Shown here piece after piece: positions 1,738 to 8,436 of a DNA stretch of 13,470 bases. Positions within the stretch are counted from its first letter, which is position 1. Every line of letters begins with the position of its first letter. Source of the stretch: Escherichia coli (lineage in GTDB: Bacteria; Pseudomonadota; Gammaproteobacteria; Enterobacterales; Enterobacteriaceae); the NCBI RefSeq assembly GCF_003334315.1, contig NZ_QOWR01000082.1. One strand, given 5' to 3'. Made by a program: the position numbers and the translations under genes. Below the pieces are notes generated by a model. The model was given only the letters and a program-made list of their open reading frames with translations. It made no database searches and was not told the DNA's origin.

Positions 1738-2467
1738 TTAGCGCGTTCGCTGCGAAAGCACCTGCTGCTTATCCAGCTTTTGCACCAGCGGCTGCACCAC
1801 TTTATCCCCATGCTGACCAAAGTATTGATACAGCGTATCGGACGCACTTTTGGTCAGCACCATAATCTCGATGCGCCGATTACCCGCACTTTGCGGATTC
1901 TTCGCGTCCAGCAGCATCTGGTCCGCCATTGCGCTTACCTGCATCACTTTATCTTCCGGCATTCCGGCCTCTTCCAGCACCCGACGAGCCGAAAGCGCGC
2001 GGTCACCCGAAAGGTTCCAGTTGTTGTAGATATTGTTTTTGTAGGCCATCGCATCGGTATGCCCGGTAATAATAATTTTATTATCGAGCGAGTCGAACAC
2101 TGGCGCGAGCTCCACCAGCAGCGTTTTAAAGAACGGCATAATCTTCGCGCTGCCGCGTTCAAACATATTGCGGTTCTGGTCATCTTTAATCAGCACGCGC
2201 AATCCCTGGGGAACAATCTCCATCTCCAGATTCGCTTCCATATGCGCATCACGGGCAATGGTGTTGATACTGGTTGCCAGCTCGCCAAGCTCGGTGGCGG
2301 ATTTCTTCTTCAGCAGCGCTGTTTTCTCGTTGACGTCTCGCGCTTTTTTCTCCGTCTCTTCCGGCACCGCCACGGTGGCAGGTTTTGGCGGATGAGACGG
2401 GCTGATTTTATTTAACGGCGACAATCCGCCGCCACTGAAAATCGACTGCCCGTGCAGCGCGGCGATA
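1738..2467 (-). pseudogene. lafU: lafU (mbhA), 5'-truncated MotB-like gene of the lateral flagellar (Flag-2) system; upstream boundary approximate
   Basis: The minus ORF 1738..2628 contains a MotB/OmpA-like C-terminal domain (LRVLIKDDQNRNMFERGS...IIITGHTDAMAYKNNIYNNWNLSGDRALSARRVL) but no N-terminal transmembrane helix. Its first ~50 codons are antisense lfhA sequence, so the real remnant starts somewhere around 2450-2490. Confidence 0.75.
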
Positions 2468-4207
<1,740 letters not shown>

Positions 4208-4230: not shown

Positions 4231-4418
4231 GCCGGATGCGGCGTGAACGCCTTATCCGTCCTACCGTTCAGGCACAAGTTTGTAGGCATGATAAGACGCG
4301 CCAGCGTCGCATCAGGCATCTGCGCATAACTGCCGGATGCGGCATAAACGCCTTATCCGGCCTACCGATCCGGCACAAGTTTGTAGGCATGATAAGACGC
4401 GCTAGCGTCGCATCAGGC
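4231..4418. repeat. BIME: four REP (repetitive extragenic palindrome) units in alternating orientation
   Basis: gccggatgcggcgtgaacgccttatccgtcctac (4231-4264), tgtaggcatgataagacgcgccagcgtcgcatcaggc (4281-4317), gccggatgcggcataaacgccttatccggcctac (4332-4365), tgtaggcatgataagacgcgctagcgtcgcatcaggc (4382-4418). Confidence 0.85.
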
Positions 4419-4430
4419 ATCTGCGCACAA

Positions 4431-4928
4431 TTATGAAATGATACGCTCCCCGGCACTAAAATCCGTTACGTCCCCCGCCCAATCGATGGGATATAACCCT
4501 CGCGCGACATCGCGATGGAACGTTGAGAATGGCCAATCACTCACTTGCTTTACCCAACCATGCTTTACTGGATTTATATAAATATAATCAACATGATGCC
4601 TATAATCTTTGGTATTGCGGATGGCGTGCTCCCAAAAACGTGGTTGCCAGATATTTTTCAATCCACAAGCATGGGTAAATTGCTTTTTAATTTCCCGCCA
4701 GCGCGAGGAAAAATCATCATCGCCTTCAGGTAATGTCCAGATACAGTGCATATGCTCTGGCAAAACGACCCAGGCGTTGATTTCAAAAGGCCTGTCTCGC
4801 TTAACTTTAATAATGGCGTGACGGAGCATCTGGTACTGGGTGGTCAAGAGTTGGCTTCGACGATTGCGTAAATTCACCGTGAAAAACCAGGTTCCCCCCT
4901 TGATGTAATAACGACGATATTCAGACAT
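4431..4928 (-). CDS. rayT: RayT (YafM), REP-associated tyrosine transposase of the HuH / IS200-IS605 TnpA-like family, 165 aa
   Basis: The 165-aa ORF has the HuH motif (PEHMHCIW) and a C-terminal tyrosine region (YRHHVDYIYINPVKHGW); ATG at 4928..4926; REP clusters lie on both sides. Confidence 0.92.
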   Translation of the reverse strand: MSEYRRYYIKGGTWFFTVNLRNRRSQLLTTQYQMLRHAIIKVKRDRPFEINAWVVLPEHMHCIWTLPEGDDDFSSRWREIKKQFTHACGLKNIWQPRFWEHAIRNTKDYRHHVDYIYINPVKHGWVKQVSDWPFSTFHRDVARGLYPIDWAGDVTDFSAGERIIS

Positions 4929-5022: not shown

Positions 5023-5853
<831 letters not shown>

Positions 5854-6030: not shown

Positions 6031-6046
6031 CTGAATAAATATACAG
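6031..6046. promoter_or_regulatory. LexA operator (SOS box) upstream of dinJ-yafQ
   Basis: ctgaataaatatacag (CTGA-N8-ACAG, one mismatch to consensus) lies 17 bp upstream of the dinJ ATG, in an AT-rich divergent promoter region shared with yafL. Confidence 0.7.
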
Positions 6047-6062
6047 CACAGGAGATCCCCCA

Positions 6063-6323
6063 ATGGCTGCTAACGCGTTTGTTCGCGCCCGAATCGATGA
6101 AGATCTGAAGAATCAGGCGGCGGACGTACTGGCCGGGATGGGGCTGACCATCTCTGACCTGGTTCGCATAACCCTCACAAAGGTCGCGCGTGAAAAGGCA
6201 TTGCCGTTTGATTTACGCGAGCCTAATCAATTAACCATTCAATCAATCAAAAACAGCGAAGCTGGCGTTGATGTTCATAAGGCCAAAGACGCCGATGATT
6301 TATTTGATAAATTAGGAATTTAA
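6063..6323 (+). CDS. dinJ: DinJ antitoxin (RHH/RelB-like), 86 aa
   Basis: The 86-aa ORF MAANAFVRARIDEDLKNQAADVLAGMGLTISDLVRITLTKVAREKALPF... is preceded by an AGGAG Shine-Dalgarno; its stop is 2 nt before the yafQ ATG. Confidence 0.95.
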   Translation: MAANAFVRARIDEDLKNQAADVLAGMGLTISDLVRITLTKVAREKALPFDLREPNQLTIQSIKNSEAGVDVHKAKDADDLFDKLGI

Positions 6324-6325
6324 AT

Positions 6326-6604
6326 ATGATTCAAAGGGATATTGAATACTCGGGACAATTTTCAAAGGATGTAAAACTTGCACAAAAGCGTCATAAGGAT
6401 ATGAATAAATTGAAATATCTTATGACGCTTCTTATCAATAATGCTTTACCGCTTCCAGCTGTTTATAAAGACCACCCGCTGCAAGGTTCATGGAAAGGTT
6501 ATCGCGATGCTCATGTCGAACCGGACTGGATCCTGATTTACAAACTTACCGATAAACTTTTACGATTTGAGAGAACTGGAACTCACGCGGCGCTCTTTGG
6601 GTAA
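6326..6604 (+). CDS. yafQ: YafQ toxin (RelE-family ribosome-dependent mRNA endoribonuclease), 92 aa
   Basis: The 92-aa ORF MIQRDIEYSGQFSKDVKLAQKRHKD... is translationally coupled to dinJ (taaatATG). Confidence 0.95.
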   Translation: MIQRDIEYSGQFSKDVKLAQKRHKDMNKLKYLMTLLINNALPLPAVYKDHPLQGSWKGYRDAHVEPDWILIYKLTDKLLRFERTGTHAALFG

Positions 6605-6759
6605 AGCACGCTGCCGATGAAATTTGTAAACCCTGCGCCGACAGGCTTGCGTAAAACTCTTTTGGTGATAATGTGAGCCTTCCAAATCCAGACTATTCCG
6701 ATTTGGGATCTATTTTGCCGTCCTGGCGTGTGTAACCGTTTTATCAAGGAATAAGCAGT

Positions 6760-7500
6760 ATGCGTAAAATCGCATTAATTCTTGCGATGTTGTTGATCCC
6801 GTGCGTTTCGTTTGCCGGTTTGCTGGGCAGCAGTAGCTCGACCACGCCAGTGAGCAAAGAGTATAAGCAGCAGTTGATGGGATCCCCTGTCTACATCCAG
6901 ATCTTCAAGGAAGAACGTACGCTCGATCTCTACGTCAAAATGGGCGAGCAATATCAACTGCTCGACAGCTATAAAATCTGTAAATATTCCGGCGGCTTAG
7001 GGCCAAAACAGCGTCAGGGCGATTTCAAAAGCCCGGAAGGGTTTTATAGCGTCCAGCGTAATCAGTTAAAACCAGACAGCCGTTACTACAAAGCGATTAA
7101 TATTGGTTTCCCCAATGCCTATGACCGTGCGCATGGTTATGAAGGGAAATACCTGATGATCCACGGCGATTGTGTTTCCATCGGCTGCTACGCAATGACC
7201 AATCAGGGTATTGATGAGATATTCCAGTTCGTTACTGGTGCGCTGGTGTTTGGTCAGCCGAGCGTGCAAGTGAGTATTTACCCGTTCCGCATGACCGACG
7301 CCAATATGAAGCGCCATAAATATTCCAACTTTAAGGACTTCTGGGAGCAGCTGAAGCCGGGTTACGACTACTTTGAGCAAACCCGTAAGCCACCAACCGT
7401 TTCTGTGGTCAATGGTCGTTACGTGGTCAGCAAGCCGTTAAGCCACGAAGTTGTGCAGCCACAACTGGCATCAAACTACACGCTCCCCGAGGCAAAATAA
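6760..7500 (+). CDS. yafK: YafK (DpaA/LdtF), YkuD-fold L,D-transpeptidase-like periplasmic protein, 246 aa
   Basis: Signal peptide [19 protein letters not shown] followed by a YkuD-like catalytic region ([18 protein letters not shown] with a conserved Cys); AAGGA Shine-Dalgarno upstream of ATG 6760. Confidence 0.92.
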
Positions 7501-8238
7501 GCGCCATTCGCCTGGCATAATCTTTTGCCAGGTTTCATTGCCCGTCAGCGGCTGTGTTGCAATCACCGTGACCACATCATTCGGTGTGGTCTGCGAGCTG
7601 AAGTCGATTTCCACATCCTGATCCAGCAACGTTGCCACGCCAAACGGCGCGCGGCGGGTGATCCAGTGTAAATTAGTCGAGCAATACGCCATTACATAGC
7701 GACCGTCCGAAAGCAGCATGTTGAAAACGCCCTTCGCCCGCAGTTCATCCGCCAGTGAGGCGATATATTTAAACACTGCCGCCATGTTGCCCGGCGTGCG
7801 CGGGTAACGCTGCGTTAATTTATGCAGGAGCCAGCAAAAGGCTTTTTCGCTGTCGGTTTCGCCTACCGGGCGGAAGTTGCCGGTTTCCAGTGATTTGTAG
7901 CCCGTCAGTTGTCCGTTATGGGCATAAGTCCAGTTACGCCCCCATAACTCGCGGGTAAATGGGTGAGTATTTTCCAGCGCCACCTCGCCCCGATTAGCCT
8001 GGCGAATATGAGCCACCACCGAACAGGATTTTATCGGGTAGTCCTGGACAAGTTTGGCGATGGGGGAATTAAAGCTGGGTTGTGGATCTTTAAATGTGCG
8101 ACAGCCTTTACCTTCGTAAAAGGTAATGCCCCAGCCATCTTTATGTGGCCCGGTTCCACCACCACGCTGTACAAGCCCGGTGAAACTAAAGCAGATATCG
8201 GTAGGGACGTTGGCGCTCATCCCGAGCAATTCGCACAT
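7471..8238 (-). CDS. yafJ: YafJ, class II (Ntn-type) glutamine amidotransferase-like protein, 255 aa
   Basis: Starts [19 protein letters not shown]: a Cys at position 2 after Met is the hallmark of Ntn class II GATases. GGAGG Shine-Dalgarno 7 nt upstream of ATG 8238..8236; the track ORF is extended 5 codons by a TTG. Confidence 0.9.
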
Positions 8239-8302
8239 GGGTAACCTCCACAACAGCGGGAGCGCATGGCCCCCGGCGAAGATTGATTTAAGAATTTTCA
8301 GG

Positions 8303-8436
8303 TCGGATGCGGCGTGAACGCATTATTCGGCCTACGGTTCGCGTACAGATTTGTAGGCATGATAAGACGCGTCAGCGTCGCATCAGGCATCAGCGCACAA
8401 ATGCCGGATGCGGCGTAAACGTCTTATCCGGCCTAC
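8303..8436. repeat. BIME: three REP units between gmhA and yafJ
   Basis: tcggatgcggcgtgaacgcattattcggcctac (8303-8335), tgtaggcatgataagacgcgtcagcgtcgcatcaggc (8352-8388), gccggatgcggcgtaaacgtcttatccggcctac (8403-8436). Confidence 0.85.

Follow-up and report, generated by a model that had tools for sequence, protein, structure and literature searches.

It is now appreciated that convergent overlaps are common in bacterial genomes: genes on opposite strands come to share their 3' ends when a stop codon shifts, and the published route to this arrangement is extension of a 3' end after stop-codon loss (PMC2716372; PMC4161906). Very short overlaps dominate among them. Convergent overlaps as a whole, of which 75 pairs are described in E. 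coli, are conserved to a greater degree than junctions without an overlap (Huvet & Stumpf 2014, PMC4161906). Related to these pairs are the convergent excludons, which are defined by reciprocal expression of the two genes, and whose overlapping transcripts form double-stranded RNA (dsRNA) that is processed to fragments of about 21 nt (PMC12288877; PMC7373196). Two further systems concern the way in which transcripts end, namely Rho-dependent termination of antisense RNA and untranslated read-through, after which exposed 3' ends are trimmed as far as a hairpin (Peters 2012; Dar & Sorek 2018; Adams 2021) and the bidirectional intrinsic terminators found as stem-loops at convergent genes (Ju et al. 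2019; Wang et al. 2022).

Here, the junction of dpaA and yafJ in E. coli is compared with these systems within a window of 13,470 nt, which is the whole stretch of DNA analysed. The junction is of the same kind as the convergent overlapping pairs, although its 30 bp exceed the dominant very short overlaps and its architecture is unusually stable. It is an already known and ordinary kind of feature; the overlap has stood in the annotation of E. coli K-12 for decades, and both the transcript overlap of the pair and its dsRNA are present in published genome-wide tables. We consider it highly probable that two genuine genes overlap here tail to tail, in an ordinary arrangement that became fixed in ancient times. 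To this, the present analysis adds that the overlap is frozen at 30 bp in all the Enterobacterales loci sampled, with a stop codon that forces rare Leu codons on the opposite strand, and that it probably came about when a disordered protein tail grew into a structured neighbour. The locus further suggests that the 3'-end hairpins of one mRNA can be encoded in, and can covary at, the synonymous sites of the opposing gene.

The dpaA-yafJ overlap, its conservation and its probable origin

The + strand gene dpaA (6760-7500) encodes 246 aa and ends in a TAA stop at 7498-7500, while the - strand gene yafJ (7471-8238) encodes 255 aa and ends in a TGA stop at 7473-7471, as given by the list of open reading frames. 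They share the 30 bp from 7471 to 7500, comprising the last nine codons and the stop of each gene, with codon position 2 opposite position 2 and position 1 opposite position 3. The shared stretch encodes S-N-Y-T-L-P-E-A-K-stop in DpaA and L-F-C-L-G-E-R-V-V-stop in YafJ. A first-pass annotation of this DNA had placed the yafK stop 30 bp within the 3' end of yafJ, and the ORF list, RefSeq and the K-12 annotation all agree. Strain CP53 is 100% identical to the query over 6700-8300 and its RefSeq annotation carries the same 30-bp dpaA/yafJ overlap; in K-12 MG1655, yafJ is annotated at 244327-245094 (+) and dpaA at 245065-245805 (-), and the mapping of K-12 coordinates to the window was verified directly. 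The gene names in the first-pass annotation were likewise correct, yafK now being called dpaA or ldtF.

Both members of the pair are genuine genes, as attested by their domains and by structures in the PDB. DpaA is an amidase that detaches Lpp from peptidoglycan (PMC10653827). The Pfam YkuD domain extends across its residues 45-159, the E. coli protein has a crystal structure (PDB 8IKR) and 3545 YafK homologues are found at E <= 1e-20. YafJ is a class II (Ntn) glutamine amidotransferase of unknown role, in which residues 1-252 of 255 match Pfam GATase_4 and align over the same span with the P. aeruginosa structure 1TE5 (E = 4e-100).

The arrangement extends well beyond E. coli. Of the 5426 complete genomes of that species, 5424 carry the dpaA-yafJ region, and a genome scan returned an overlap of exactly 30 bp in 80/80 species loci. 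The same length recurs in Pantoea, Erwinia, Shimwellia, Cronobacter, an Enterobacterales contig and Photorhabdus, bringing the total to 86 of 86 other species loci from Enterobacteriaceae, Erwiniaceae and Photorhabdus; with the window included, both stops occupy the same positions in 87/87 sequences. Mean column identity is 0.93 in the overlap, as against 0.81-0.91 in its flanks. The overlap is far more than a chance occurrence.

The stop of each gene constrains the codon on the other strand. The dpaA stop at 7498-7500 (TAA here, TAG in other species) is also the codon for YafJ Leu247, which among 86 sequences is TTA in 60 and CTA in 26. TTA and CTA together account for 7% of the remaining 1723 Leu codons of yafJ, and in no other conserved Leu column does their share exceed 16%, so that the dpaA stop forces rare Leu codons on YafJ. 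Conversely, the yafJ stop TGA at 7471-7473 is the TCA codon of DpaA Ser238 and is invariant, being TGA in every locus. Were the dpaA stop lost, that gene would grow by 56 codons. Enterobacteriaceae keep the PQLASNY tail of DpaA as a protein sequence, and the DNA just ahead of it varies synonymously. Moving either stop alters a protein, and this dual coding constraint fully explains the conservation of the overlap.

Given that the crystal model of DpaA is without the last 17 residues, and that the tail of the protein lies outside the region conserved in distant homologues, it could be argued that one of the two proteins ends earlier and that the coding overlap is an artefact of annotation. This we regard as extremely improbable, and the idea was rejected on several grounds. 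The stops are set by the sequence and not by the choice of a start, and neither frame holds an earlier in-frame stop. Their identity in all sequences, the restriction of the facing Leu codon to two rare, stop-preserving codons and the protein-level conservation of the PQLASNY tail speak against an artefact, as does the position of the final YafJ residues within the GATase_4 domain, where they align to a solved structure.

How the overlap came about can be approached from the two protein ends. Homology to distant YafK relatives stops at about residues 221-231, and one such relative terminates immediately after the RY.V motif. The DpaA crystal model covers residues 36-229 only and was obtained from V8-trimmed protein, the full-length protein having given no crystals. 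Beyond Enterobacterales, of three YafK relatives at about 50% identity, one has a neighbour on the same strand other than yafJ, and a second faces an unrelated convergent neighbour. Because the YafJ C-terminus appears ancestral and part of the fold, while the DpaA tail is lineage-specific and flexible, the overlap most likely arose by extension of the dpaA 3' end into the antisense of the last nine codons of yafJ, a scenario drawn from present-day sequences only. Such an extension could have proceeded through loss of a stop or fusion with the spacer, yielding a flexible DpaA C-terminal tail of about 20 residues. Purifying selection on the ends of both proteins would have maintained the overlap since then.

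Read-through transcription and double-stranded RNA

By geometry, each mRNA reaches at least 27 nt into the coding sequence of its partner, and the 3' untranslated part of each lies within the opposing gene; published data show the transcripts to extend considerably beyond this minimum. The first-pass annotation had proposed that the transcripts must run into each other's coding sequences; published Rho-termination regions, an excludon listing and captured duplexes bear this out. Read-through from dpaA, antisense to yafJ (7501-7790, +), ends in a published Rho region at K-12 244775(-), which corresponds to window 7790 (+) (score 6.55, p = 2.8e-17; PMC7815308 Supp. file 2). Read-through from yafJ, antisense to dpaA (6960-7470, -), ends in the region antisense to yafK at K-12 245605(+), or window 6960 (-) (score 6.11, p = 3e-16; PMC7815308 Supp. 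file 2). Both positions are approximate. On the published Rho scores, both read-through transcripts show the bicyclomycin sensitivity of Rho-dependent termination.

These bicyclomycin-sensitive regions, 290 and 511 nt past the dpaA and yafJ stops, liken the locus to the system of Rho termination and trimming, as does a stable hairpin at the dpaA transcript end listed in a published operon table (see below). The read-through RNA is untranslated by geometry. The locus differs from that system in that the enrichment of C over G downstream of the two stops is mild only, with C/G ratios of 1.07-1.23 over 7501-7800 (+) and 0.89-1.43 over 7470-6971 (-), in that the termination positions are approximate and in that internal antisense start sites may contribute. 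Antisense TSSs lie within yafJ at window positions 7681 and 7775, and these could explain part of the Rho signal at ~7790. The Term-seq data of Adams et al., covering three conditions, list no discrete 3' end for yafK or yafJ, and both genes are absent from the TERMITe and SMRT-Cappable-seq supplements. On the published data, dpaA transcripts that continue past the hairpins described below are halted by Rho in about 300 nt. The yafJ transcript, with no conserved hairpin past its stop, is halted by Rho in about 500 nt, inside dpaA.

Both genes are expressed, so that their complementary 3' ends form duplexes which RNase III cleaves. As evidence of this, 21-nt duplexes of RNase III type were captured by p19 at 7476-7498 on both strands, inside the overlap (PMC7373196 Table S3). 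Their strands match the window exactly, at 7476-7496(-) and 7478-7498(+), and the captured duplexes bear 2-nt overhangs, the dependence on RNase III having been demonstrated globally in that study (PMC7373196). They fall within dsRNA cluster 23 (K-12 244820-245319, window 7246-7745), at about 169 RPM (PMC7373196). Antisense reads of yafJ amount to 24-47% of sense reads, compared with less than 3% for the neighbours lpcA and fadE (PMC7373196). Moreover, yafJ-dpaA is listed among 165 convergent excludons of E. coli (ExcludonFinder, PMC12288877 Table 1), where the pair was called in 50% or more of the RNA-seq samples studied (PMC12288877). Overlapping transcripts are thus evident in published data of three kinds, namely the ExcludonFinder call, the Rho regions and the sense and antisense counts, and dsRNA with RNase III-type processing in the published duplexes, for which RNase III dependence is known at the global level.

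The likeness of the pair to convergent excludons therefore lies in transcript overlap and in dsRNA cleaved to a length of about 21 nt. The two differ in that the coding sequences overlap here and not the UTRs alone, and in that the reciprocal expression which defines an excludon is putative at this locus. A regulatory consequence of antisense pairing between dpaA and yafJ is possible. In its strong form, this idea would make the overlap a true excludon, a regulatory module under selection, in which pairing of the 3' ends with RNase III cleavage and/or polymerase collision renders DpaA and YafJ expression reciprocally dependent, and regulation, beyond any constraint on the protein ends, fixes the architecture. 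We hold this to be unlikely. The excludon call, the duplexes with their dsRNA cluster and the high antisense coverage of yafJ are what such a module would lead one to expect, and so are the retention of the architecture by all the Enterobacterales loci sampled from three families and the conserved RNA hairpins within yafJ codons; in addition, transcription can be terminated where a stem-loop positions the collision of convergent RNAPs (bioRxiv 10.1101/2022.10.23.513370). Against a selected module, however, the dsRNA cluster is a modest one beside the 4,478-17,960 RPM of the top 20 coding clusters (PMC7373196), and conservation of the overlap is already accounted for in full by dual coding. Antisense RNA from Rho-suppressed read-through is pervasive and mostly seen as noise, and DpaA and YafJ are not known to be linked in function.

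Hairpins of the dpaA 3' region within yafJ

The first-pass annotation had also held that the junction leaves no room for a terminator for either gene. This proved wrong, since elements that form a 3' end can be placed in the coding sequence of the partner; those of dpaA, two hairpins and a Rho-termination region, sit within yafJ. The first hairpin (stem-loop 7510-7533), which with its tract spans 7510-7540 (+), occupies yafJ codons 233-243 and reads GCCUGGCA-uaaucuuu-UGCCAGGU, followed by UUCAUUG; together with UUUCAUU it begins 10 nt past the dpaA stop. It is a stable, G+C-rich stem-loop with an 8-bp stem (5 G-C pairs), an 8-nt loop and an MFE of -14.6 kcal/mol, and 98% of cells are paired across 83 sequences. 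At the 4-fold degenerate yafJ sites in its stem (7510, 7513 and 7531), conservation is 0.92, 0.96 and 1.0, values of 0.9 or above being reached by only 14% of 105 yafJ 4-fold sites generally. Much of its conservation is nevertheless dictated by Trp and Met codons, no compensatory change occurs across the 83 sequences and the hairpin is weakened in Klebsiella and Raoultella loci. Its U-tract UUUCAUUG is conserved and holds 5 U in 8, with interruptions; a simple terminator scan of the + strand did not report the hairpin. No RNA 3' end maps to the U-tract in Term-seq under three conditions, a result whose meaning is limited by low expression, and the operon end in the published table lies at 7593, not at ~7540 where the U-tract is found. 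It is possible that hairpin 1 serves as a leaky intrinsic terminator of dpaA.

As a stem-loop at convergent genes that could position collisions, hairpin 1 resembles the bidirectional intrinsic terminators, from which it differs in having a U-tract on the + strand only. It lies upstream of the yafJ stop and so cannot be the yafJ terminator, and it is therefore not a bidirectional one.

The second hairpin, at 7570-7591 (+), occupies yafJ codons 216-223 and reads GACCACAUC-auuc-GGUGUGGUC. Its extended stem has an MFE of -18.3 kcal/mol and 92.5% of cells are paired. Changes on both sides of a pair occur in 14 cells, as against 5.0 +/- 1.8 in shuffles, and 0/500 shuffles reach 14, although this control can be beaten by related sequences without structure. 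The covariation, GC<->AU at 7570/7591 and AU<->GC at 7576/7585, falls entirely at third codon positions of yafJ and is modest, 13-15 cells being unpaired at the covarying pairs. In the operon table, the dinJ-yafQ-yafK operon ends at K-12 244972, which is window 7593 (PMC7373196 Table S1), and the base of hairpin 2 lies 2 nt before this end. Hairpin 2 is likely the terminal, protective stem-loop of the dinJ-yafQ-dpaA mRNA, an assignment we infer from this position and from its conservation. Following that operon entry, dpaA would be cotranscribed with dinJ-yafQ, and the two hairpins embedded in yafJ would shape the 3' end of the transcript. Since Term-seq lists no 3' ends for either gene, the roles given to the hairpins draw on their conservation together with one coverage-based transcript end, which that table gives at second hand.

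An alternative is that both hairpins are by-products of the YafJ amino acids and of codon preference, with no selected RNA structure and with 3' ends that are purely Rho-dependent, or in which Rho is joined by exonuclease trimming or polymerase collision. This reading deserves to be taken seriously, though we find it rather doubtful. The invariable Trp and Met codons of hairpin 1, its want of compensatory change and its degradation in Klebsiella and Raoultella fit a by-product, as do the silence of the + strand terminator scan, the Term-seq lists without a 3' end for either gene and the bicyclomycin sensitivity of both read-through transcripts. Folding of the 100-110 nt around the junction is also no stabler than that of shuffles on either strand, with ordinary z-scores of -1.06 and -0.26. 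On the other hand, the 4-fold sites of hairpin 1 stand well above those of yafJ at large and include a non-preferred CCA proline codon, the synonymous double changes of hairpin 2 exceed all 500 shuffles and this hairpin closes 2 nt short of the tabulated transcript end.

Other candidate elements were set aside. The simple terminator scan also gave, at 7517-7499 on the - strand, two weak sites of 5 bp that would halt yafJ ahead of its own stop codon; they were rejected as chance matches to the consensus. A hairpin past the yafJ stop, at 7451-7466 (-), is stable in E. coli, yet only 38% of cells are paired across 87 sequences, and it was rejected as a conserved terminator. An Rfam scan of the whole window gave no match at the junction and three REP/naRNA4 matches elsewhere.

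Possible coupling and practical consequences

The fixed 30-bp overlap and the two dpaA 3' hairpins in synonymous sites of yafJ might together form a selected device for post-transcriptional coupling, a reading to which we give a slim chance. Every dpaA mRNA would then be able to pair with the yafJ mRNA over at least 123 nt, and RNase III cleavage and/or collisions positioned by the hairpins would set the level of DpaA inversely to that of YafJ throughout Enterobacterales. Were this so, one might suspect that YafJ shares in an envelope-related role.

For the ordinary overlap that we favour, the consequences are practical. Deleting or tagging the 3' end of either gene also changes its partner and the partner's mRNA, and the same cross-effect calls for caution in the reading of yafK/dpaA or yafJ knock-outs.

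Gene ends and the reality of both partners

Both members of the convergent pair that meets at 7471-7500 are real genes. The product of dpaA (6760-7500, + strand; formerly yafK, now dpaA or ldtF) has a YkuD domain (residues 45-159) and a crystal structure for the E. coli protein (8IKR), and is the amidase that cuts Braun's lipoprotein off the peptidoglycan (PMC10653827). YafJ matches the Pfam GATase_4 model over residues 1-252 of 255, and the same residues align with P. aeruginosa 1TE5 (E = 4e-100). The ORF list and the RefSeq annotation place the ends identically, with a TAA at 7498-7500 (+) for dpaA and a TGA at 7473-7471 (-) for yafJ. Further, strain CP53, which is 100% identical over 6700-8300, is annotated with a 30-bp dpaA-yafJ overlap, and K-12 MG1655 carries yafJ at 244327-245094 (+) and dpaA at 245065-245805 (-). 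The ORF list and both annotations thus bear out the coordinates, gene names and 30-bp figure of the first-pass annotation. K-12 positions were converted as window = 252565 - K-12 coordinate, with exact seeds as a check.

At its 5' end, the mechanical yafJ ORF opens at a TTG at 8253 (- strand, 260 aa), while the annotated gene (255 aa) opens at an ATG at 8238. The cysteine of an Ntn amidotransferase has to be N-terminal, and since the 1TE5 alignment begins at the Met-Cys of the annotated start, the ATG at 8238 is the right one.

The overlap is already known, and the pair is already catalogued as a convergent excludon. The additions made here are small: the retention of the overlap in every sampled Enterobacterales locus, a codon bias imposed by a stop, a likely origin via the lengthening of a disordered tail, and hairpins encoded at synonymous sites of the opposing gene.

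Conservation and probable origin of the overlap

Of 5426 complete E. coli genomes, 5424 contain the region 6700-8300 and two do not; 15 of its 5435 matching places lie on records labelled plasmid. Scanning a single genome for each species gave 80 loci (Escherichia, Citrobacter, Enterobacter, Klebsiella, Raoultella, Salmonella, Kluyvera, Leclercia, Lelliottia, Kosakonia, Yokenella, Trabulsiella, Phytobacter and others), and every one has its two stops exactly 30 bp apart. The 30-bp overlap also occurs in Pantoea, Erwinia amylovora, Shimwellia and Cronobacter, on a further contig with 58% YafK identity, and in Photorhabdus at 53% identity. In two YafK relatives of about 50% identity, the neighbouring gene is one other than yafJ. 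Column identity peaks in the overlap, at 0.93.

Two loci are worth recording separately. The yafJ orthologue of Citrobacter koseri NCTC10786 (L050, 3212-3991) has several frame disruptions (5 internal stops in direct translation; 64% tblastn identity), with the last ~90 codons and the 30-bp dpaA overlap unbroken, which points to a pseudogene or to indel errors in the assembly. On a metagenome contig (L090) carrying a YafK relative at 51% identity, the yafK homologue lies in a 4-bp convergent overlap (1010-1013) with an unrelated gene, not yafJ, that has no Pfam match on record.

The dpaA stop, TAA or TAG, reads on the opposite strand as TTA or CTA, the codon for Leu247 of YafJ. All 86 sequences use one of these two (TTA 60, CTA 26), whereas together they account for only 7% of the other 1723 yafJ Leu codons and for ≤16% at every other conserved Leu column. 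Both states are found within single genera, so the site does mutate, yet stays with the two codons compatible with the dpaA stop. The yafJ TGA is invariant and lies opposite DpaA Ser238 (TCA). DpaA would gain 56 codons if its stop were lost, and YafJ 10 if the yafJ stop were. Within the overlap, a change that is synonymous in one gene is conservative in its partner, as with DpaA Thr/Ala against YafJ CGT/CGC, or DpaA AAC/AAT against YafJ Val/Ile. Since shifting either stop alters a protein, no regulatory role is needed to explain why the overlap is conserved.

As for its origin, the C-terminal end of YafJ (GEW.LFCLGER) lies inside the GATase_4 model and is kept as far as Pseudomonas. Alignments of distant homologues to DpaA end at about residue 221-231, one homologue terminating directly after the RY.V motif (E. 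coli residues 220-223), and the DpaA crystal model covers residues 36-229 only, from protease-trimmed protein, full-length protein having given no crystals. The DpaA tail PQLASNY is conserved within Enterobacteriaceae; in Erwiniaceae and Photorhabdus it is divergent, while YafJ LF.LGER is retained. The simplest reading is that the dpaA 3' end was extended into the antisense of yafJ, likely by extension of a disordered DpaA tail; 3'-end extension is the published route to convergent overlaps (PMC2716372; PMC4161906). The YafJ sequence now determines which residues DpaA can have at its end.

Transcripts and candidate 3'-end structures

The proposal that each transcript enters the other gene and yields antisense RNA is right and was documented already, by Rho-termination regions, RNA duplexes and an excludon listing. 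The bicyclomycin experiment of Adams et al., 2021 placed Rho-termination regions at K-12 245605(+), antisense to yafK (Rho score 6.1), and at 244775(-), antisense to yafJ (6.6) (PMC7815308); these correspond to window 6960 (-) and 7790 (+), positions that are approximate, being derived from 800-nt windows. The same study lists no Term-seq 3' end for dpaA or yafJ (PMC7815308), and Rho-suppressed read-through antisense RNA is widespread (PMC7815308). Beside the region at ~7790 lies a terminator-like site, GCGCGG-gtaacg-CTGCGT then TAATTTAT, at 7798-7815 (+).

Huang et al., 2020 report dsRNA cluster 23 at K-12 244820-245319 (window 7246-7745; ~169 RPM), labelled yafJ yafK, type "3' & Full", convergent (PMC7373196, Table S1), which is modest against their top clusters of 4,478 to 17,960 RPM. 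The 21-nt duplexes they list, perfectly paired and ending in 2-nt overhangs (~1000 reads per strand; Table S3), match exactly at 7476-7496(-) and 7478-7498(+), within the overlap, and antisense reads over yafJ in total RNA reach 24-47% of sense reads, against <3% for lpcA and fadE (PMC7373196). The cluster row also gives antisense TSSs inside yafJ at K-12 244790 and 244884 (window 7775 and 7681, + strand), whose RNAs may add to dpaA read-through, and an operon on the - strand (P 246532, T 244972; window 6033-7593). On this reading of the table columns, the operon is dinJ-yafQ-yafK and ends 2 nt beyond hairpin 2.

The first-pass annotation also held that neither gene has room for a terminator. 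This does not follow, since 3'-end elements can lie within the partner's coding sequence, and two candidate hairpins in yafJ do so. Hairpin 1 (7510-7540, +; GCCUGGCA-uaaucuuu-UGCCAGGU, then UUCAUUG; -14.6 kcal/mol) starts 10 nt past the dpaA stop. Over 83 distinct sequences, its pairing is kept in 98% of cells, with no compensatory change, and its conservation is partly forced by Trp and Met codons. The three four-fold yafJ sites in the stem, one of them a non-preferred CCA proline codon, have conservation of 0.92, 0.96 and 1.0, a level of 0.9 being reached by only 14% of 105 such sites. Hairpin 1 is weaker in Klebsiella/Raoultella loci and absent in Photorhabdus.

Hairpin 2 (7570-7591, +; extended stem -18.3 kcal/mol) has 92.5% of cells paired. 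GC<->AU exchange is seen at 7570/7591 and AU<->GC at 7576/7585, every one of these sites being the third position of a yafJ codon. Changes on both sides occur in 14 cells against 5.0 +/- 1.8 in shuffles (0 of 500 equal it); related sequences can exceed shuffles without structure, so the covariation is suggestive rather than proof. A small hairpin after the yafJ stop (7451-7466, -), present in E. coli, was rejected as a conserved element, with only 38% of cells paired. The junction is not a bidirectional terminator, since yafJ's own stop comes downstream of hairpin 1, whose U-tract is on one strand only.

Overall, convergent overlapping gene pairs are a common class, with 75 in E. coli (PMC4161906); dpaA-yafJ belongs to it and is one of 165 MG1655 convergent excludons in ExcludonFinder Table 1 (PMC12288877). 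In structure and transcripts the pair is an excludon; a functional one would also show reciprocal expression, and interference between the two genes is no more than a possibility.

Other features of the window

The window carries dinB-yafNOP, a lafU/flhA remnant, rayT, yafL, dinJ-yafQ, dpaA, yafJ, lpcA/gmhA, fadE, ivy and yafV of the E. coli chromosome. Three full-length Rfam naRNA4 matches (RF02564, REP-type; 74-78 bits) lie on the - strand, two of them (4285-4362 and 5027-5104) flanking the REP-associated transposase gene rayT (4431-4928) and the third (8356-8433) in the yafJ-lpcA intergenic region. Finally, in 1738-4207 the annotation has lafU overlapping by 35 bp with an flhA pseudogene truncated at its N-terminus; their product names (lateral flagellar export/assembly and flagellar biosynthesis proteins) suggest that the two are what is left of a lateral-flagella gene cluster.
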